Origin: Escherichia coli
Lineage (GTDB): Bacteria; Pseudomonadota; Gammaproteobacteria; Enterobacterales; Enterobacteriaceae
Length of the DNA: 64,000 nucleotides
Assembly (NCBI RefSeq): GCF_024502345.1
Contig: NZ_JALDNN010000001.1
Direction: 5' to 3' (one strand)
Under the pieces are notes generated by a model. The model was not told the DNA's origin and did no database searches. It saw only the letters and a program-made list of their open reading frames with translations. The position numbers were made by a program, and so were the translations under genes. Shown here piece after piece: positions 16,981 through 42,080 of this stretch. The stretch's first letter is position 1. Every line of letters begins with the position of its first letter.

Positions 16981-17450
16981 CGGCTGTCAGCGAAGCCAAC
17001 ATTCTGAGCACATTTGAGCAACTGCATCAGAGCAAAGGCGAGGTGTTTGAGCGTGGCGTGATTAACGTGTTTAAAGGTCTGAGCTGGGATTTTAAGAGTA
17101 ACAGCCCGTGTAAGTTCGGGAAAAAGATCATCGTGATAGGGCTGGTGAAACATGACCGATGGGGATTTGGGCTTAACTGGGGCTGGCAACGTGATCGTCT
17201 GGCGGATCTTGAACGCATGCTGATACTGCTTGATGGCAAACCCGTTCCCGACAACCGCGCTGACATTACCCGTAGGCTGGGCGATCATATTCATGAGAAC
17301 AGGCACAGTAACCGTTACGAGGATGAGATGCTTGTGATTAAGTATTTTCAGAAGGGAACGGCACACATCGTATTCAAGCGACCTGAGCTGGTCGATAAGC
17401 TGAACGACATCATCGCCCGGCACTATCCGGGAGCCCTGGCTGCGATGTGA
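16981..17450 (+). pseudogene. C-terminal part of the IS3-interrupted 277-aa gene
   Basis: in-frame continuation of 15355..15718 once IS3 + 4-bp duplication is removed (junction ...EDI|PAVSEAN...). Confidence 0.65.
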
Positions 17451-17552
17451 AGAGGGCTGGAAATAAAATTCTTACCTGACCCATTACCTGACCCAATCTA
17501 CGTCCAAAGAACAAGGAGTTAGATGATTTCTCATCTAACTCCTTGTTTTATT

Positions 17553-17628
17553 TGGTGGCCCCTCCCCGGCTTGAACGGGGGACCAAGCGATTATGAGTCG
17601 CCTGCTCTAACCACTGAGCTAAGGGGCC
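17553..17628 (-). tRNA. ileX: tRNA-Ile(CAU) (ileX-type, lysidine tRNA) with island-derived T-arm
   Basis: 76 nt incl. CCA; anticodon loop CTCATAA; acceptor/D/anticodon arms match K-12 ileX as recalled; T-stem CCCCG/CGGGG differs. Confidence 0.9.
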
Positions 17629-31381: not shown

Positions 31382-32002
31382 TTAGTTCATCCAGCGATCT
31401 TTGCGTTTGCGGCTTGGGATCAGGTGCGGCAGTACCAGACCGAGCAGCAAGCCAAGCCCCAGCACGCCGCCGCCATACATAAACCATTGCATGATGATGG
31501 TGCGCTGTTTGTCATCCAGCTGCACGCTGGCGGCATCGACCTTTTTCTGCGCGACAATCAGCTCGTTTTTCAGTTTCTGATTTTCTTCTTTTAACCCGTT
31601 GATCACGCTGTCGCTCTGCGCTACTTTTTGCTGCATTTCTGCGGTGCGCTGATTCCAGGTGTTATCGATATTGGTGAGTTTATCGGTCAGGGTTTTGACC
31701 TGATTTTCCAGATCTGGCACACGGGAGCGCAGGCTTGGTTCAGTGCTAAGTTGTTTCAACGGGATCCAGGCGGTACGGCCAGAGCTGTCTTTCACCTGGG
31801 CATAATTGGTGTTGGCGTCAGTTTGTAATAAGGTCACTTCCTCGCCGGCGTTAACCGTGCCCACGAGGCGATAATGATCTCCCGGACCGCTACGGACCCA
31901 GGTATTCAGTTCGTCAGAAACATAGCGCGTTTCTTCAGCGTGTGAGACGGCAGTCGCGCTAAGTGCGAGTAAAGTTAATCCGATCAGGCGTAATTTTGGC
32001 AT
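31382..32002 (-). CDS. ygiM: SH3-domain protein YgiM
   Basis: 206 aa, signal peptide, C-terminal TM. Confidence 0.9.
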   Translation of the reverse strand: MPKLRLIGLTLLALSATAVSHAEETRYVSDELNTWVRSGPGDHYRLVGTVNAGEEVTLLQTDANTNYAQVKDSSGRTAWIPLKQLSTEPSLRSRVPDLENQVKTLTDKLTNIDNTWNQRTAEMQQKVAQSDSVINGLKEENQKLKNELIVAQKKVDAASVQLDDKQRTIIMQWFMYGGGVLGLGLLLGLVLPHLIPSRKRKDRWMN

Positions 32003-32243
32003 CAGGCTGTCGTTATTGTCATGGAAAGTGGAACGATAGTAGTGGCATCAGTGTCGCTACGCAAAGCATTCGACATCAATCGGAATCCTCTGTGTCAGGT
32101 CTTGCCACTGCTTCAAACTTTTACGCCCGTCAAATTGCCCGTTGCATGGCAATTTGGCGCAAAATACTATCTACTGACAAAAAAGATCGCATTAAGTTCG
32201 CCGTTCATCGTCACTTATGTGACATAACCGATAAGTAAAGGCC

Positions 32244-33545
32244 ATGGCTCAGGAAATCGAATTAAAGTTTATTGTTAATCACAGTGCCGTTGAGGCGTTG
32301 CGTGACCATCTCAATACGCTGGGCGGCGAGCACCATGACCCCGTGCAGTTGCTGAATATTTACTACGAAACGCCGGATAACTGGCTGCGTGGGCACGATA
32401 TGGGCTTACGTATTCGTGGCGAAAACGGTCGCTATGAGATGACCATGAAAGTTGCAGGAAGAGTGACAGGCGGCTTACACCAGCGCCCGGAATATAACGT
32501 GGCGTTGAGCGAACCGACGCTCGACCTGGCGCAGTTTCCCTCGGAAGTCTGGCCGAACGGCGAATTGCCTGCCGATCTCGCTTCCCGCGTACAACCGCTG
32601 TTCTGCACCGATTTTTATCGCGAAAAATGGCTGGTGGCGGTCGATGGCAGCCGAATTGAAATCGCTCTCGATCAGGGTGAGGTGAAAGCGGGGGAATTTG
32701 CTGAACCTATCTGTGAGCTGGAACTGGAGCTGCTTAGCGGCGACACGCGCGCGGTGCTGAAACTGGCGAACCAACTGGTATCGCAAATCGGATTACGCCA
32801 GGGCAGCCTGAGCAAAGCGGCGCGTGGCTATCATCTGGCGCAGGGCAATCCGGCGCGTGAAATCAAACCGACCACCATTTTGCATGTTGCGGCAAAAGCC
32901 GATGTGGAACAGGGGCTGGAAGCGGCGCTCGAGCTGGCGTTAGCGCAATGGCAGTATCATGAAGAACTGTGGGTACGCGGCAACGATGCGGCGAAAGAAC
33001 AGGTGCTGGCAGCCATTAGCCTGGTCCGTCATACGCTGATGCTGTTCGGTGGTATTGTGCCGCGTAAAGCGAGCACTCACTTACGTGATCTGCTGACTCA
33101 ATGCGAGGCGACCATTGCTTCTGCGGTTTCTGCCGTGACGGCGGTCTACTCTACCGAAACGGCAATGGCGAAGCTGGCGTTGACCGAATGGTTGGTAAGC
33201 AAAGCATGGCAGCCATTTTTAGATGCCAAAGCGCAGGGCAAAATCAGCGACTCCTTCAAACGCTTTGCCGATATCCATCTTTCCCGCCATGCCGCTGAAC
33301 TGAAAAGCGTTTTCTGCCAGCCGTTAGGCGATCGCTACCGTGACCAGTTGCCACGCCTGACGCGTGATATTGACTCAATACTGTTGCTGGCGGGTTACTA
33401 TGATCCTGTCGTCGCGCAAGCCTGGCTGGAGAACTGGCAGGGGCTGCATCACGCTATTGCGACCGGGCAACGCATCGAAATTGAACATTTCCGTAATGAG
33501 GCAAACAATCAGGAACCGTTCTGGTTGCACAGCGGAAAACGTTAA
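32244..33545 (+). CDS. ygiF: inorganic triphosphatase YgiF (CYTH domain)
   Basis: 433 aa. Confidence 0.93.
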
Positions 33546-33567
33546 TCAGGCAAGGATAAAATCGCTT

Positions 33568-36408
33568 ATGAAGCCGCTCTCTTCACCGTTACAGCAGTAC
33601 TGGCAGACCGTTGTTGAGCGGCTGCCAGAGCCTTTAGCCGAGGAATCACTTAGCGCGCAGGCGAAGTCAGTACTTACTTTCAGTGACTTTGTGCAGGACA
33701 GCGTGATTGCGCATCCAGAGTGGCTGACGGAACTGGAAAGCCAACCGCCGCAGGCCGACGAATGGCAGCATTACGTTGCATGGTTGCAGGAGGCGCTCAG
33801 TAATGTGAGTGACGAAGCCGGGTTAATGCGCGAGCTGCGGCTGTTCCGGCGGCGCATTATGGTACGTATCGCCTGGGCGCAAACGCTGGCACTGGTTACT
33901 GAAGAGAGCATATTGCAGCAGCTCAGCTATCTGGCGGAGACACTGATTGTTGCGGCGCGTGACTGGCTATATGACGCCTGCTGCCGCGAGTGGGGAACGC
34001 CGTGCAATGCGCAGGGCGAAGCGCAACCGCTGCTGATTTTAGGCATGGGTAAGCTGGGCGGCGGGGAACTGAATTTCTCCTCAGATATCGATCTGATTTT
34101 TGCCTGGCCGGAACATGGTTGTACGCAGGGTGGACGCCGGGAACTGGATAATGCGCAGTTTTTTACCCGCATGGGGCAGCGGCTGATTAAAGTGCTGGAT
34201 CAACCAACGCAGGATGGCTTTGTCTATCGCGTGGATATGCGACTGCGTCCGTTTGGCGAAAGTGGCCCGCTGGTGCTGAGCTTTGCCGCGTTGGAAGATT
34301 ATTACCAGGAGCAGGGGCGCGACTGGGAGCGTTACGCGATGGTCAAGGCGCGGATTATGGGCGATAGCGAAGGCGTCTATGCTAACGAGTTGCGTGCGAT
34401 GCTGCGCCCGTTTGTTTTCCGTCGTTACATCGATTTCAGCGTGATTCAGTCGCTGCGCAACATGAAAGGGATGATTGCCCGTGAAGTGCGTCGACGTGGT
34501 TTGACCGACAATATCAAACTCGGCGCAGGCGGCATTCGCGAAATTGAATTTATCGTTCAGGTGTTCCAGCTCATTCGCGGTGGGCGCGAACCGTCGCTGC
34601 AGTCGCGCTCTTTACTGCCAACGCTCAGCGTCATTGCCGCGCTGCATCTGCTTTCTGAAAACGATGCTGAACAATTGCGAGTGGCGTATCTGTTCCTGCG
34701 GCGTCTGGAAAACCTGCTGCAAAGCATTAACGACGAACAAACCCAGACGCTTCCTTCTGATGAGCTTAACCGTGCGCGGCTGGCGTGGGCGATGGACTTT
34801 GCTGACTGGCCGCAACTGACCGGGGCGCTGACCGCACATATGACCAATGTGCGCCGGGTGTTTAATGAATTGATTGGCGACGACGAAAGTGAAACTCAGG
34901 AAGAGTCGCTGTCGGAACAGTGGCGTGAGCTGTGGCAGGATGCGTTGCAGGAAGATGACACTACGCCAGTGCTGGCGCATCTTAGCGAGGACGATCGCAA
35001 ACAGGTACTAACGCTGATTGCCGATTTCCGCAAAGAGCTGGATAAGCGCACCATCGGGCCGCGAGGACGTCAGGTGCTCGACCATCTGATGCCGCATCTG
35101 CTAAGTGATGTCTGTGCGCGTGAAGACGCTGCCGTTACGCTGTCGCGCATTACCGCCTTGCTGGTGGGGATTGTTACCCGCACCACCTATTTAGAATTGC
35201 TCAGTGAATTCCCCGCGGCGCTTAAACATTTGATTTCTCTGTGTGCCGCGTCGCCGATGATTGCCAGCCAGCTGGCGCGTTATCCATTATTGCTGGATGA
35301 ATTGCTCGATCCAAACACCCTTTACCAGCCGACGGCGACCGATGCCTACCGCGATGAGTTGCGCCAGTATTTGCTGCGCGTGCCGGAAGATGACGAAGAG
35401 CAACAGCTTGAGGCGCTGCGTCAGTTCAAACAGGCGCAGCTGTTACGCATCGCCGCAGCGGATATCGCCGGTACGCTACCGGTGATGAAAGTGAGCGATC
35501 ACTTAACCTGGCTGGCGGAAGCCATGATAGATGCCGTCGTTCAGCAGGCGTGGGTTCAAATGGTTGCCCGCTACGGTAAGCCGAATCACCTGAACGAACG
35601 CGAAGGGCGTGGTTTTGCAGTGGTCGGCTACGGCAAGCTGGGCGGCTGGGAGTTAGGCTACAGTTCCGATCTTGACCTGATCTTCCTCCATGATTGCCCA
35701 ATGGATGCGATGACTGACGGCGAGCGGGAAATCGACGGGCGGCAGTTTTATCTGCGTCTGGCGCAACGCATTATGCATCTGTTCAGTACGCGTACCTCTT
35801 CCGGCATTTTGTATGAAGTGGATGCTCGACTGCGTCCGTCCGGGGCGGCGGGAATGCTGGTGACATCCGCAGAAGCATTTGCCGATTATCAGAAAAACGA
35901 GGCCTGGACGTGGGAACATCAGGCGCTGGTGCGTGCGCGTGTAGTGTACGGCGATCCGCAGCTCACCGCGCACTTTGACGCGGTGCGTCGTGAGATTATG
36001 GCGCTGCCGCGCGAAGGCAAAACCCTGCAAACAGAAGTGCGGGAAATGCGCGAGAAAATGCGCGCTCATCTCGGCAATAAACATCGCGATCGCTTTGATA
36101 TCAAAGCCGATGAAGGCGGAATTACCGATATCGAATTTATTACCCAATATCTGGTGTTGCGCTACGCTCATGAAAAACCGAAGTTAACGCGCTGGTCAGA
36201 CAACGTGCGCATTCTGGAACTGCTGGCACAAAACGACATTATGGAAGAGCAGGAAGCGATGGCGCTGACCCGTGCTTACACGACGCTTCGCGATGAACTT
36301 CATCATCTGGCATTACAGGAATTGCCGGGCCATGTGTCGGAGGATTGCTTCACCGCAGAGCGTGAACTGGTGCGGGCAAGCTGGCAGAAGTGGCTGGTGG
36401 AAGAATGA
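33568..36408 (+). CDS. glnE: glutamine synthetase adenylyltransferase GlnE
   Basis: track ORF 33364.. trimmed to ATG 33568 ([12 protein letters not shown]), 946 aa. Confidence 0.96.
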
Positions 36409-36455
36409 AGTATGGTATTATCGCGCGCAAATTTTGAATCTCTCAGGAGACAGGA

Positions 36456-37889
36456 ATGAAAGTAACGCTGCCAGAGTTTGAACGTGCAGGAGTGATGGTG
36501 GTTGGTGATGTGATGCTGGATCGTTACTGGTACGGCCCCACCAGTCGTATCTCGCCGGAAGCGCCGGTGCCCGTGGTTAAAGTGAATACCATCGAAGAAC
36601 GTCCGGGCGGCGCGGCTAACGTGGCGATGAATATCGCTTCTCTCGGTGCTAATGCACGCCTGGTCGGGTTGACGGGCATTGACGATGCAGCGCGCGCGCT
36701 GAGTAAATCTCTGGCCGACGTCAACGTCAAATGCGACTTCGTTTCTGTACCGACGCATCCTACCATTACCAAATTACGGGTACTTTCCCGCAACCAACAG
36801 CTGATCCGTCTGGATTTTGAAGAAGGTTTCGAAGGTGTTGATCCGCAGCCGCTGCACGAGCGGATTAATCAGGCGCTGAGTTCGATTGGCGCGCTGGTGC
36901 TTTCTGACTACGCCAAAGGTGCGCTGGCAAGCGTACAGCAGATGATCCAACTGGCGCGTAAAGCGGGCGTTCCGGTGCTGATTGATCCAAAAGGTACCGA
37001 TTTTGAGCGCTACCGCGGCGCTACGCTGTTAACGCCGAATCTCTCGGAATTTGAAGCTGTTGTCGGTAAATGTAAGACCGAAGAAGAGATTGTTGAGCGC
37101 GGCATGAAACTGATTGCCGATTACGAACTCTCGGCTCTGTTAGTGACCCGTTCCGAACAGGGTATGTCGCTGCTGCAACCGGGTAAAGCGCCGCTGCATA
37201 TGCCAACCCAGGCGCAGGAAGTGTATGACGTTACCGGTGCGGGCGACACGGTGATTGGCGTCCTGGCGGCAACGCTGGCAGCGGGTAATTCGCTGGAAGA
37301 AGCCTGCTTCTTTGCCAATGCGGCGGCTGGTGTGGTGGTCGGCAAACTGGGGACGTCCACGGTTTCGCCGATCGAGCTGGAAAACGCTGTACGTGGACGC
37401 GCAGATACCGGCTTTGGCGTGATGACCGAAGAGGAACTGAAGCTGGCCGTAGCGGCAGCGCGTAAACGTGGTGAAAAAGTGGTAATGACCAACGGTGTCT
37501 TCGATATCCTACATGCCGGGCACGTCTCTTATCTGGCAAATGCCCGCAAGCTGGGTGACCGCTTGATTGTTGCCGTCAACAGCGATGCCTCCACCAAACG
37601 GCTGAAAGGGGATTCCCGCCCGGTAAACCCACTCGAACAGCGTATGATTGTGCTGGGCGCACTGGAAGCGGTCGACTGGGTAGTGTCGTTTGAAGAAGAT
37701 ACGCCGCAGCGCCTGATCGCCGGGATCCTGCCAGATCTGCTGGTGAAAGGTGGCGACTATAAACCAGAAGAGATTGCCGGGAGTAAAGAAGTCTGGGCCA
37801 ACGGCGGCGAAGTGCTGGTGCTCAACTTCGAAGACGGTTGCTCGACCACTAACATTATCAAGAAGATCCAACAGGATAAAAAAGGCTAA
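36456..37889 (+). CDS. hldE: bifunctional heptose 7-phosphate kinase/heptose 1-phosphate adenylyltransferase HldE
   Basis: 477 aa. Confidence 0.97.
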
Positions 37890-37969
37890 CCGGAAAGCGG
37901 GTCACAGATCTCGCTTCGTACCTAGCAGGCCTATTGACGCTGTTGCTTTTTCAACCTAGAGTAAAGGAA

Positions 37970-38112
37970 CAAGGGTAAGGGAGGATTTCTCCCCCCTCTG
38001 ATGAGTTGTTAGTAAGTCGGGAAACTTAACAGTAACAACACAACCAGTATGATGACGAGCTTCATCATAACCCTTTCCTTCTATAAGGCCCCTTCCTCGG
38101 GAGGGGCTTTCC
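37970..38112 (+). ncRNA. sibD: SibD antitoxin sRNA (approximate ends)
   Basis: promoter TTGACG-17-TAGAGT at 37934-37962; antisense to ibsD; terminator hairpin ~38088-38112; ends inferred. Confidence 0.7.
38009..38068 (-). CDS. ibsD: type I toxin IbsD (19 aa)
   Basis: reverse strand encodes MMKLVIILVVLLLLSFPTY*; not in the >=60-aa ORF track. Confidence 0.85.
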   Translation of the reverse strand: MMKLVIILVVLLLLSFPTY

Positions 38113-38344
38113 CGTTTCAGCCCCTTGCTGACTCCCCGATTGTTGATGAGCGCCGGACCCCGCGCAACGCTTTCCCTGAAGCAGTTTTGCCTTCCCCGAG
38201 CGGTCACGCAAAACGCTGCAACGTCCTGAGCATTTGCACCTTTTAGCGGAACGCAGATATAAAAAATCCCCGGCTTTTTGGGCCAGGGATATGTGTTAAT
38301 GAAACCTTCTTGACGCTGATTTTTTTTCAACCTAAAGTAAAGGA

Positions 38345-38488
38345 ACAAGGGTAAGGGAGGATTTCTCCCCCCTCTGATTGGCTGTTAATAAGCTGCGAAA
38401 CTTACGAGTAACAACACAATCAGTATGATGACGAGCTTCATCATAACCCTTTCCTTATACAAGGCCCCTTCTTCGGGAGGGGCTTTCC
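38345..38488 (+). ncRNA. sibE: SibE antitoxin sRNA (approximate ends)
   Basis: second copy of the ~375-bp unit; promoter TTGACG-17-TAAAGT at 38310-38338. Confidence 0.7.
38385..38444 (-). CDS. ibsE: type I toxin IbsE (19 aa)
   Basis: reverse strand encodes MMKLVIILIVLLLVSFAAY*. Confidence 0.85.
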   Translation of the reverse strand: MMKLVIILIVLLLVSFAAY

Positions 38489-38682
38489 CGTTTCAGCCCC
38501 TTGCTGACTCCCCGATTGTTGATGAGCGCCGGACCCCGCGCAACGCTTTCCCTGAGGTAGTTTTGCCTTCCCCGAGCGGTCACGCAAAATGCTGCAACAG
38601 CCCGATCATTTGCACTTTTTATCGGAACGCAGATATAAAAAATCCCCGGCTTTTTGGGCCAGGGATGTTCATAGCTGAAAAT

Positions 38683-40344
38683 TTATTCTACGTTTTCGGC
38701 GACGGGAGTTGTTGAGGTTAAGGGTGAAGTCAATGCAGCCAGTGAGCCGCCTGAAACGCCAATTTCATTGAGCAAGGAGTCAATCAGTGGTGCCTGTGTG
38801 CGGTAAGAGAGTGCGGCTGATAATGCTTGTTCCGCCAGGTTTCCGCCCCCCACATTACCCGTGTTTGCATCCCCCGCAGTACCACCACGATTCAGACCAT
38901 CGACCTGAATAATCTTGATACCGTCAATGGACTTCATTGGTTCCACGGATTTCTCTATTACCGCAGGTAGCGCCTGCAACAAGGCCAGTTTGAATTTAAG
39001 GCTGGTTTGTTCGTCAGAAAGTACGTTGATAGCATCGTTCAGCGCACGTTGTGCTTCTGCTTCCGCCAGGCCTTTTTTACGCGTAGCTTCGGCTAACTCA
39101 ACGATCGCCGCCGCCTGCATCTCTGCGGCTTCTTTTTCCGCTTTCGCCCGCACGGTCAGTTCAACCGCTTTGGTTTCTGCATCCTGTGCTGCGGCAATCA
39201 GCGCCACCTGCTTGGCACGATCGGCTTCGGCTGTCTGGCGAGTGGTTTCTACGTTTTGTTGGGCGCTTACTGCTTCTGCGAGTGCAAGGTTAGCACGCGC
39301 TTCTGCCTGGGACTGTTGTTCCGATTTGGCGGCAATAGCGATCGATTTCGTCTGGTTAGCGATTTCGGTGACCTGCTGCTGTTCGATCTCTTTAATGCGA
39401 ACTTCACGTTCAGCTTCAACTTTTCTTGAGCGGACGGCCTGTTCGCGGTCGATTTCTGTTTCCTGAATCTGTCGTTCAGCCAGAATTCGCGTCTGCTCTG
39501 CTTCACGACGACGTTCAGCTTCAAAAGCAGCAATTTTCGCATTTTGTTCAGCGGTACGGGTTTTAACTTGCTGCTCCTGCTCAAGCGTCATAAACGCTTC
39601 TTGTTGTTCAATCTCCAACTTGCGCGAAAGTGCATCACGGTTTTTCTCACGCACCGCAACTTCTACATCCTGTTCAACTTCGTTACGCTCGCGGCGACGG
39701 CGCTCCGTCTCCTGAGTCAGTTTGGTTAAACCTTCGGCGTCAAAGGCATTGTTCGGATTGAAATGTTCTTTCGAGGTCTGGTTAAAGTTGGTAAGTGAAA
39801 CGCTTTCCAGTTCCAGGCCGTTTTTCGACAGATCTTCAGCTACGGTATTTTGTACTCCCTGCACGAAGTTCTCGCGGGTATCCTGTAACTCATGCATGGT
39901 CATTTGCGCAGCTGTTGCACGGAGGGCATCGACAAATTTATCTTCAACCAACATACGTAAGTCTTCAGGCGACAGGGTGCGTTGCCCCAGCGTCTGGGCA
40001 GCGGTGGCAATCCCTTCTACTGAAGGTTTTACCCGCACAAAGAAAGCGACTACTACATCGACGCGCATACGATCTTTCGTAATCAGGCTATCAATGGTTG
40101 AGCGGCTGACTTCCAGCTTCAGAGTATTCATATTGATGGGGATTATTTCATGAAAGATCGGCATCACGATTGCGCCACCGCTCATTACCACTTTTTGCCC
40201 CCCTAAGCCGGTACGGACAAATGCTTGCTCTGCCGAAGCTCGACGATAGAGCCTGGCGAAAATAATTCCAATAATAAACAGAATGCATACGGCAATAATC
40301 GCGGTAAACATCCAGGAGGGCACAGAATTAACAATATCATCCAT
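38683..40344 (-). CDS. yqiK: flotillin-family inner membrane protein YqiK
   Basis: 553 aa, SPFH domain + long coiled coil. Confidence 0.93.
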   Translation of the reverse strand: MDDIVNSVPSWMFTAIIAVCILFIIGIIFARLYRRASAEQAFVRTGLGGQKVVMSGGAIVMPIFHEIIPINMNTLKLEVSRSTIDSLITKDRMRVDVVVAFFVRVKPSVEGIATAAQTLGQRTLSPEDLRMLVEDKFVDALRATAAQMTMHELQDTRENFVQGVQNTVAEDLSKNGLELESVSLTNFNQTSKEHFNPNNAFDAEGLTKLTQETERRRRERNEVEQDVEVAVREKNRDALSRKLEIEQQEAFMTLEQEQQVKTRTAEQNAKIAAFEAERRREAEQTRILAERQIQETEIDREQAVRSRKVEAEREVRIKEIEQQQVTEIANQTKSIAIAAKSEQQSQAEARANLALAEAVSAQQNVETTRQTAEADRAKQVALIAAAQDAETKAVELTVRAKAEKEAAEMQAAAIVELAEATRKKGLAEAEAQRALNDAINVLSDEQTSLKFKLALLQALPAVIEKSVEPMKSIDGIKIIQVDGLNRGGTAGDANTGNVGGGNLAEQALSAALSYRTQAPLIDSLLNEIGVSGGSLAALTSPLTSTTPVAENVE

Positions 40345-41924: not shown

Positions 41925-42080
41925 GCTTATTCTCAGGGCGGGGCGAAATTCCCCACCGGCGGTAAATCAACTCAGTTGAAAGCCCGCGAGCGCTTTGGGT
42001 GCGAACTCAAAGGACAGCAGATCCGGTGTAATTCCGGGGCCGACGGTTAGAGTCCGGATGGGAGAGAGTAACGATTCTGT
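41925..42080 (+). promoter_or_regulatory. FMN riboswitch (RFN element) in ribB leader
   Basis: conserved agggcggggcgaaattccccaccggcggta ... ggatgggagagag motifs upstream of ribB. Confidence 0.85.

Follow-up and report, generated by a model that had tools for sequence, protein, structure and literature searches.

Introduction

Sib/Ibs modules were reportedly described in Escherichia coli K-12 in 2008. They were dissected in 2010 by Han et al. (PMC2943612), who found that the antisense RNA SibC recognises the ibsC mRNA via two independent domains, TRD1 inside the ORF and TRD2 in the region where translation is initiated. Once begun at these TRDs, pairing extends further, the SibC-ibsC duplex is a substrate of RNase III in vitro, and repression ends in degradation of the mRNA (PMC2943612). 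When the TRDs of SibC were swapped for those of SibD the RNA was retargeted to ibsD, and the TRDs are without exception found in variable parts of the family (PMC2943612). When IbsC is overproduced, the membrane is depolarised within minutes and the cells die, both of which SibC prevents (PMC8309996). Toxicity and repression are known for K-12 IbsC/SibC and ibsD/SibD (PMC2943612, PMC8309996).

The ldr/rdl, hok/sok, zor/orz and shoB/ohsC systems resemble Sib/Ibs in that a small hydrophobic membrane toxin is held in check by an antisense RNA repressor, often in tandem duplicates that share an intergenic region (PMC2887945, PMC8309996). Their peptide and RNA families are unrelated to Sib/Ibs, however, and most of them have an antisense RNA that covers just part of the mRNA or acts in trans, whereas Sib spans essentially the whole ibs mRNA.

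Here we analysed a 64,000-nucleotide stretch of E. coli DNA (the window), in which we identify positions 37934-38666, with a probability of about 0.97, as the chromosomal sibE/ibsE-sibD/ibsD locus of E. coli, made up of two tandem Sib/Ibs type I toxin-antitoxin modules. This is a textbook system that has already been described and is present at this site in essentially all E. coli; the anatomy, family membership, orthology and conservation of this copy are documented below. Its closest counterparts are sibE/ibsE (b4611/b4666) and sibD/ibsD (b4447/b4664) of K-12, with which it shares the order hldE, E, D, yqiK as well as the peptides and the terminators. It is also like K-12 sibC/ibsC (Han et al. 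2010, PMC2943612) in having fully overlapping antisense pairs, an ATGATG hairpin and two variable recognition regions, and K-12 IbsC is likewise a 19-aa hydrophobic toxin (MMRLVIILIVLLLISFSAY). The sibC/ibsC module differs in being single-copy at another locus (fau-serA), with unrelated sequence upstream of the ibs promoter and a different TRD1 and TRD2.

Organisation and naming of the two units

The genes hldE and yqiK are convergent, and the sib/ibs units occupy the 801 bp of intergenic DNA between them (Table 1). A single direct-repeat family was found there, with two 300-nt copies at 37934-38233 and 38310-38609 that are 92% identical and have a start-to-start spacing of 376. In a global alignment the similarity of the units reaches 38290 and 38666, respectively; the 357 aligned positions differ by 26 substitutions, without any gap. 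The repeat search and a promoter scan recovered what the initial annotation had pointed out at this place, namely two near-identical units with the plus-strand promoters TTGACG-17-TAGAGT and TTGACG-17-TAAAGT.

Table 1. Features discussed in the text, with positions in the window
Feature	Position	Strand	Basis
hldE, 477-aa ORF	36456-37889	+	name from homologous RefSeq annotation
Repeat unit 1, sibE/ibsE, adjoins hldE	37934-38309		direct repeat, unit alignment, K-12 comparison
sibE promoter, TTGACG (-35)-17-TAGAGT (-10)	37934-37962	+	promoter scan; unpaired 5' positions 1-30 of the Rfam model
SibE RNA, 144 nt, terminator hairpin 38085-38110 plus tail	37969-38112	+	ends mapped from RefSeq K-12 sibE feature
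Predicted ibsE mRNA, about 162 nt, almost all within the SibE overlap	37971-38132	-	376-bp offset from ibsD unit
ibsE toxin ORF, 19 codons plus stop, MMKLVIILVVLLLLSFPTY (...SFPTY)	38009-38068	-	translation
MMTSFIIT... ORF, 65 aa	38049-38246	+	ORF list
Putative ibsE promoter, TTGCGC (38167-38162)-17-AACAAT (38144-38139), start site G 38132	38139-38167	-	identical sequence 376 bp from the ibsD one
Terminator-like hairpin between ibsD and ibsE units, ATCCCTGGCCCAAAAAGCCGGGGAT + TTTTTATATC	38256-38290	-	terminator scan
Repeat unit 2, sibD/ibsD, adjoins yqiK	38310-38666		direct repeat, unit alignment, K-12 comparison
sibD promoter, TTGACG (-35)-17-TAAAGT (-10)	38310-38338	+	promoter scan
SibD RNA, 144 nt, terminator hairpin 38461-38486	38345-38488	+	ends mapped from K-12 sibD feature
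Predicted ibsD mRNA, 162 nt (163 nt in K-12)	38347-38508	-	ends from K-12 primers of Han et al. 2010 (PMC2943612)
ibsD toxin ORF, 19 codons plus stop, MMKLVIILIVLLLVSFAAY (...SFAAY)	38385-38444	-	translation
MMTSFIIT... ORF, 96 aa	38425-38715	+	ORF list
Putative ibsD promoter, TTGCGC (38543-38538)-17-AACAAT (38520-38515), start site G 38508	38515-38543	-	sequence read and published start site
Second hairpin copy, 17 nt past yqiK stop codon	38632-38666	-	terminator scan
yqiK, flotillin gene, 553-aa ORF	38683-40344	-	name from homologous RefSeq annotation
P4-type integrase, truncated	10761-11474
IS5 transposase	13124-14140
YfjS/YafY lipoprotein	14411-14863
DUF4942 gene split by IS3 element (transposase 15749-16615)	15340-15735 and 17043-17450

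The two units can be named by comparison with K-12 MG1655, in which the annotated order is yqiK, sibD/ibsD, sibE/ibsE, hldE. The peptides encoded in the window are identical to K-12 IbsE (b4666, MMKLVIILVVLLLLSFPTY) and IbsD (b4664, MMKLVIILIVLLLVSFAAY), the latter of which RefSeq grades in K-12 as merely a 'putative toxic peptide'. At the RNA level, unit 1 is identical to K-12 sibE at 141 of 144 positions and to sibD at 131 of 145, while unit 2 matches K-12 sibD at 140 of 145 and sibE at 134 of 144. Because the K-12 peptides, the RNA identities and the flanking genes all agree, unit 1 is sibE/ibsE and unit 2 is sibD/ibsD; the hldE-proximal CDS is also labelled ibsE by RefSeq in the closest genome and in O157:H7. 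The initial annotation had recognised the pair correctly but listed D before E, and this order is its sole error. Divergence from K-12 is about 4% over the 801-bp intergenic region (K-12 at 96.3%); relative to the window, K-12 has one extra nucleotide in the stem of the sibD terminator and lacks one nucleotide downstream of sibE.

About 230 bp of each unit lie outside the Sib covariance model, and this part consists of the Sib terminator, the ibs 5' UTR and promoter, and a minus-strand terminator. The whole 376-bp unit is accounted for by known elements. No second RNA family was found in these ~230 bp of either unit in a permissive Rfam scan of 37850-38750 (E up to 1); the weak matches of the same scan, to GadY (19 bits), NsiR1 (18.5 bits) and mir-7 (20.6 bits), were far under their gathering scores and were discarded as noise. 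Long inverted repeats were also looked for in 37600-39000 and none was found, so the unit is without terminal inverted repeats and is not mobile-element-like.

The Sib antitoxin RNAs

The assignment of both units to the Sib family, proposed in the initial annotation, agrees with an Rfam 15 scan of the whole window. Family RF00113 (SIB_RNA) matched the sibE unit at 37934-38083 on the plus strand with 140.4 bits (E = 5.8e-29) and the sibD unit at 38310-38459 on the same strand with 150.8 bits (E = 1.7e-31), in both cases over model positions 1-147 of 147 and against a gathering score of 56. On the minus strand the model reached merely 28.7 and 39.8 bits. We therefore place the small RNAs on the plus strand, where RF00113 scores 140-151 bits as against 29-40 on the other. 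The model includes the promoter and ends ahead of the terminator, so that it does not give the RNA ends; these were mapped from the K-12 features, and for SibD the SP6-SibD and SibDSmaI primers of Han et al. 2010 (PMC2943612) point to the same 5' and 3' ends.

SibE and SibD both begin at an A located 7 nt past the -10 element and end in an 11-bp G+C-rich terminator hairpin followed by UUUCC. The predicted folds, which comprise a closing stem, three internal hairpins and the terminator, have a minimum free energy of -51.8 kcal/mol for SibE (z = -3.6 versus shuffled controls) and -52.4 kcal/mol for SibD (z = -4.5). Judged at the level of sequence, each unit would thus encode what is expected of a Sib family member, with a sigma-70-like promoter, a +1 A, an intrinsic terminator and an RNA of 144 nt.

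The window sibD promoter is identical to that of K-12 from -35 through +1, and the sibE promoter differs from its K-12 counterpart by one spacer base. A 35-bp minimal promoter of K-12 sibD is a published NAD-capping element and is experimentally active (PMC12956327); SibD carries an NAD cap in K-12, and the same would be expected in the window strain. A third promoter-like site on the plus strand, TTAACA-16-TATGAT (38026-38053, 10 of 12 matches), lies within sibE, and the sibD unit is without it. Its -10 overlaps the ATGATG palindrome, and it is probably a chance match arising from that palindrome.

The ibs toxin genes and their mRNAs

On the strand opposite the Sib RNAs, the initial annotation had placed a 19-aa hydrophobic ORF in each unit, and both translate exactly as claimed. 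Their status as toxin genes is supported by the identity with K-12 IbsE and IbsD described above, by conservation (see below) and by Pfam family PF13956 (Ibs_toxin), which matched the ibsE peptide with 46.3 bits (E = 3.7e-12) and the ibsD peptide with 40.0 bits (E = 3.6e-10), covering profile positions 1-19 of 19 in both against a cut-off of 27. As the profile searches need at least 20 aa, the peptides were extended by the 4-6 in-frame residues upstream of them. An NCBIfam scan of the extended peptides returned no Ibs model, yet RefSeq uses the names 'type I toxin-antitoxin system toxin IbsE' and 'Ibs family toxin' for proteins identical to those of the window, a naming that probably comes from a rule other than an NCBIfam model. 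In FDAARGOS_943 and O157:H7 the ibsE peptide is annotated in the corresponding position as WP_010723221.1, and that of ibsD is annotated as WP_001387081.1 ('Ibs family toxin') in other genomes.

Each ibs ORF, together with its Shine-Dalgarno region, is fully enclosed by the Sib RNA of its unit (37969-38112 for SibE, 38345-38488 for SibD), which is the overlap expected of a type I pair. The start codons are held in a palindromic hairpin, UAUGAUGA-loop-UCAUCAUA.

The limits of the ibsD mRNA can be placed by means of published primers. Its 5' end would be the G of GTCAGCA, which matches the ERI-T7-ibsD primer (...GTCAGCAGGGGGCTG), and its 3' end matches the ibsD+163 primer, AAGGGT... (AAGGGTGAGGG...) (PMC2943612). 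One extra C makes the K-12 mRNA longer, at 163 versus 162 nt. The predicted fold of the window ibsD mRNA has a free energy of -67.3 kcal/mol (z = -4.9). The sequence of 38113-38167 is the same in both units, and the limits of the ibsE mRNA were set by the offset between them.

Conserved promoter elements have been reported to precede the mapped ibsD start site (Han et al. 2010, PMC2943612), and we take the TTGCGC and AACAAT hexamers of the window to be putative ibs promoters. Both hexamers are weak, and a promoter scan that looked for 9 of 12 consensus positions missed them. On the minus strand, both units carry an identical hairpin with a 9-pair stem (6 G-C) that leads into a T run; the hairpin is conserved across strains. 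The copy at 38632-38666 is probably the yqiK terminator, and the internal copy at 38256-38290 would insulate ibsE from transcription leaving the ibsD unit.

Distribution and variation among E. coli genomes

The 801-bp intergenic region was present at 80% coverage or more in 5416 of 5426 complete E. coli genomes. In a sample taken at even steps through the ranking, two-unit loci had 95-98% identity to the window, and roughly the last quarter of the ranking consisted of loci of about 410-440 bp, which correspond to a single unit; this was confirmed by annotation in two of them, FCI1 and CREC-U3. The surviving single unit can carry varied Ibs alleles, ending in ...SFQAY or reading MMKF...SFPTY. 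Among 20 sampled D/E-type units (11 sequences), the 19-codon ORF with its ATGATG start was kept in every one, and the Ibs peptides varied only conservatively (L4F, A17Q and A18T).

One further kind of variation concerns a haplotype that spans TRD2 and the terminator loop (38073-38100 and 38449-38476). Its alleles, CTAT, ATAC or CTGT in combination with C or T in the loop, are distributed as a mosaic between the two units among strains. The haplotype CCTTATACAAGG...TCTTC is found in the hldE-proximal unit of K-12, EC590, M505 and PK8261, whereas in the window and in FDAARGOS_943 it is found in the yqiK-proximal unit. The other unit of the window has CCTTCTATAAGG, where K-12 sibD has CCTTCTGTAAGG, and LH85-a carries the TRD2 allele CTGT in both units. 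In this small sample, the mosaic pattern suggests ongoing gene conversion between the tandem copies.

Alternative readings of the units

Of the other explanations for these units, the one that fares best is that they are decayed Sib/Ibs relics, no longer expressed or no longer toxic. Inactive chromosomal type I loci are known, as stated in general terms in PMC2887945, and about one quarter of the sampled E. coli genomes have a single unit at the locus. In the window, however, promoters, start codons, stops, terminators and RNA folds are intact in both units, as is the Shine-Dalgarno-like AAGGAAAGGG. The peptides are those of K-12 without a single change, and the sibD promoter through +1 is the one shown to be active by experiment in K-12 (PMC12956327). 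Decay is therefore very improbable, and a complete pair of modules is the reading that we retain.

Still less credible is the view that the plus-strand MMTSFIIT... ORFs are the real protein genes and the minus-strand mini-ORFs incidental. The plus-strand ORFs do exist, they start at ATGATG, and 12 of the 20 D/E-type units sampled retain the 65-aa version. Yet they have no match in Pfam or NCBIfam, in contrast to the minus-strand peptides, which pass PF13956, and RefSeq annotates them as a CDS in none of the genomes that we fetched. The frame is shifted in both K-12 units, so that 59 and 27 aa remain, and the sibA and sibC counterparts are cut short at 27 and 30 aa. Translation would need to traverse the Sib terminator hairpin, and the ATGATG at which the ORFs begin is simply the opposite arm, in reverse complement, of the palindromic hairpin in which the ibs start codons lie. 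All of this upholds the position of the initial annotation that these ORFs are not genes.

The idea that the tandem direct repeat in this intergenic region is a generic repeat or a recent strain-specific duplication without toxin-antitoxin function can be set aside, since the two-unit arrangement recurs across E. coli lineages, the units (92% identical) have diverged specifically in the recognition regions, and both match curated RNA and protein families of Sib/Ibs.

Proposed mechanism and specificity of pairing

The account that follows of transcription, toxicity, RNA pairing and mRNA decay at the sibE/ibsE-sibD/ibsD locus draws on the published K-12 work. In each unit, a weak promoter on the minus strand would produce an ibs mRNA of about 162 nt, which would be translated into the 19-residue hydrophobic peptide; in excess, this peptide would depolarise the inner membrane. 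A stronger sigma-70 promoter on the plus strand would drive the 144-nt Sib RNA, starting at A, which is predicted to be perfectly complementary to almost all of the ibs mRNA, ribosome-binding site and ORF included. Pairing would start at TRD1, within the variable segment that faces the 3' half of the ORF, and at TRD2, opposite the translation-initiation region, and would then spread, with the result that translation is blocked and the ibs mRNA degraded. From their sequence identity with K-12, the window Ibs peptides are expected to be toxic and the Sib RNAs to repress them.

The two Sib RNAs of the window differ at 13 positions, of which 10 fall in the 46 nt of 38001-38046 (the TRD1 region), two in the 16-nt TRD2 region and one in the terminator loop, and this is the pattern that has been reported for target discrimination (Han et al. 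2010, PMC2943612). No difference between the units falls in the 5' stem, in the ATGATG hairpin, or in the 5' UTR and promoter of ibs. Because the units differ almost solely in the recognition regions, each Sib should silence its own ibs mRNA only. The specificity of cross-talk observed in K-12 is not simply transferable to the window, as both units differ from K-12 at TRD2.

In SibC chimeras, TRD2 alone was enough for repression (Han et al., PMC2943612). If this holds for the present pair as well, natural strains may vary in cross-repression between SibD and SibE, which would make the cognate-only rule of K-12 dependent on the strain. The combined proposal, that gene conversion between the tandem copies has led to such differences among strains, seems to us an unlikely one. 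The swapped TRD2 haplotype is the sole feature of the locus with a potential for novelty, and the sample in which it was seen is small. The tandem pair is a small natural experiment on how duplicated antisense pairs are insulated from one another, in that both the number of units and the recognition alleles exchanged between them vary in nature. A correct annotation should include both sRNA genes and the 19-codon ibs genes, omit the spurious 65-aa and 96-aa plus-strand ORFs, and name the units as in K-12, with E adjoining hldE and D adjoining yqiK.

Other features of the window

Only one of the complete E. coli genomes matched the locus itself at 99% or more, and the neighbouring 5.9 kb are 99.5% identical to two E. 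coli assemblies and at least 95% identical to all others, which places the window on a chromosome of the E. coli group. Positions 32000-38690 are identical to none of the 5,426 complete genomes, a collection that holds E. coli only; the best matches were FDAARGOS_943/944 at 99.4-99.5%, followed by four more genomes at 99.0-99.2% and the rest at less than 99%. Taken with the IS-rich island described below, this could point to a Shigella or to an E. coli lineage that has rarely been sampled.

A tRNA gene with the anticodon CAU lies at 17553-17628 on the minus strand, at the position of ileX; its RefSeq homologue is annotated as tRNA-Ile, and ARAGORN assigns it to Met. The T-arm is fully substituted but keeps its base pairing, reading CCCCG/TTCAAGC/CGGGG where K-12 and the otherwise closest genome have GCTGG/TTCAAGT/CCAGC; the downstream terminator differs as well. 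Between nfeF (9745-10509) and this tRNA gene are about 7 kb (10510-17552) that are absent from K-12 and from the otherwise closest genome. None of the complete E. coli genomes holds 80% or more of this stretch in one place. With its truncated integrase, IS elements and split gene (Table 1), it looks like a decayed island integrated in the 3' part of the tRNA gene.

On the other side of the sib/ibs locus, an FMN riboswitch (RF00050) was found at 41925-42073 on the plus strand, matching over its full length with 120.9 bits against a gathering score of 66.2. By its position it is presumably the ribB leader.
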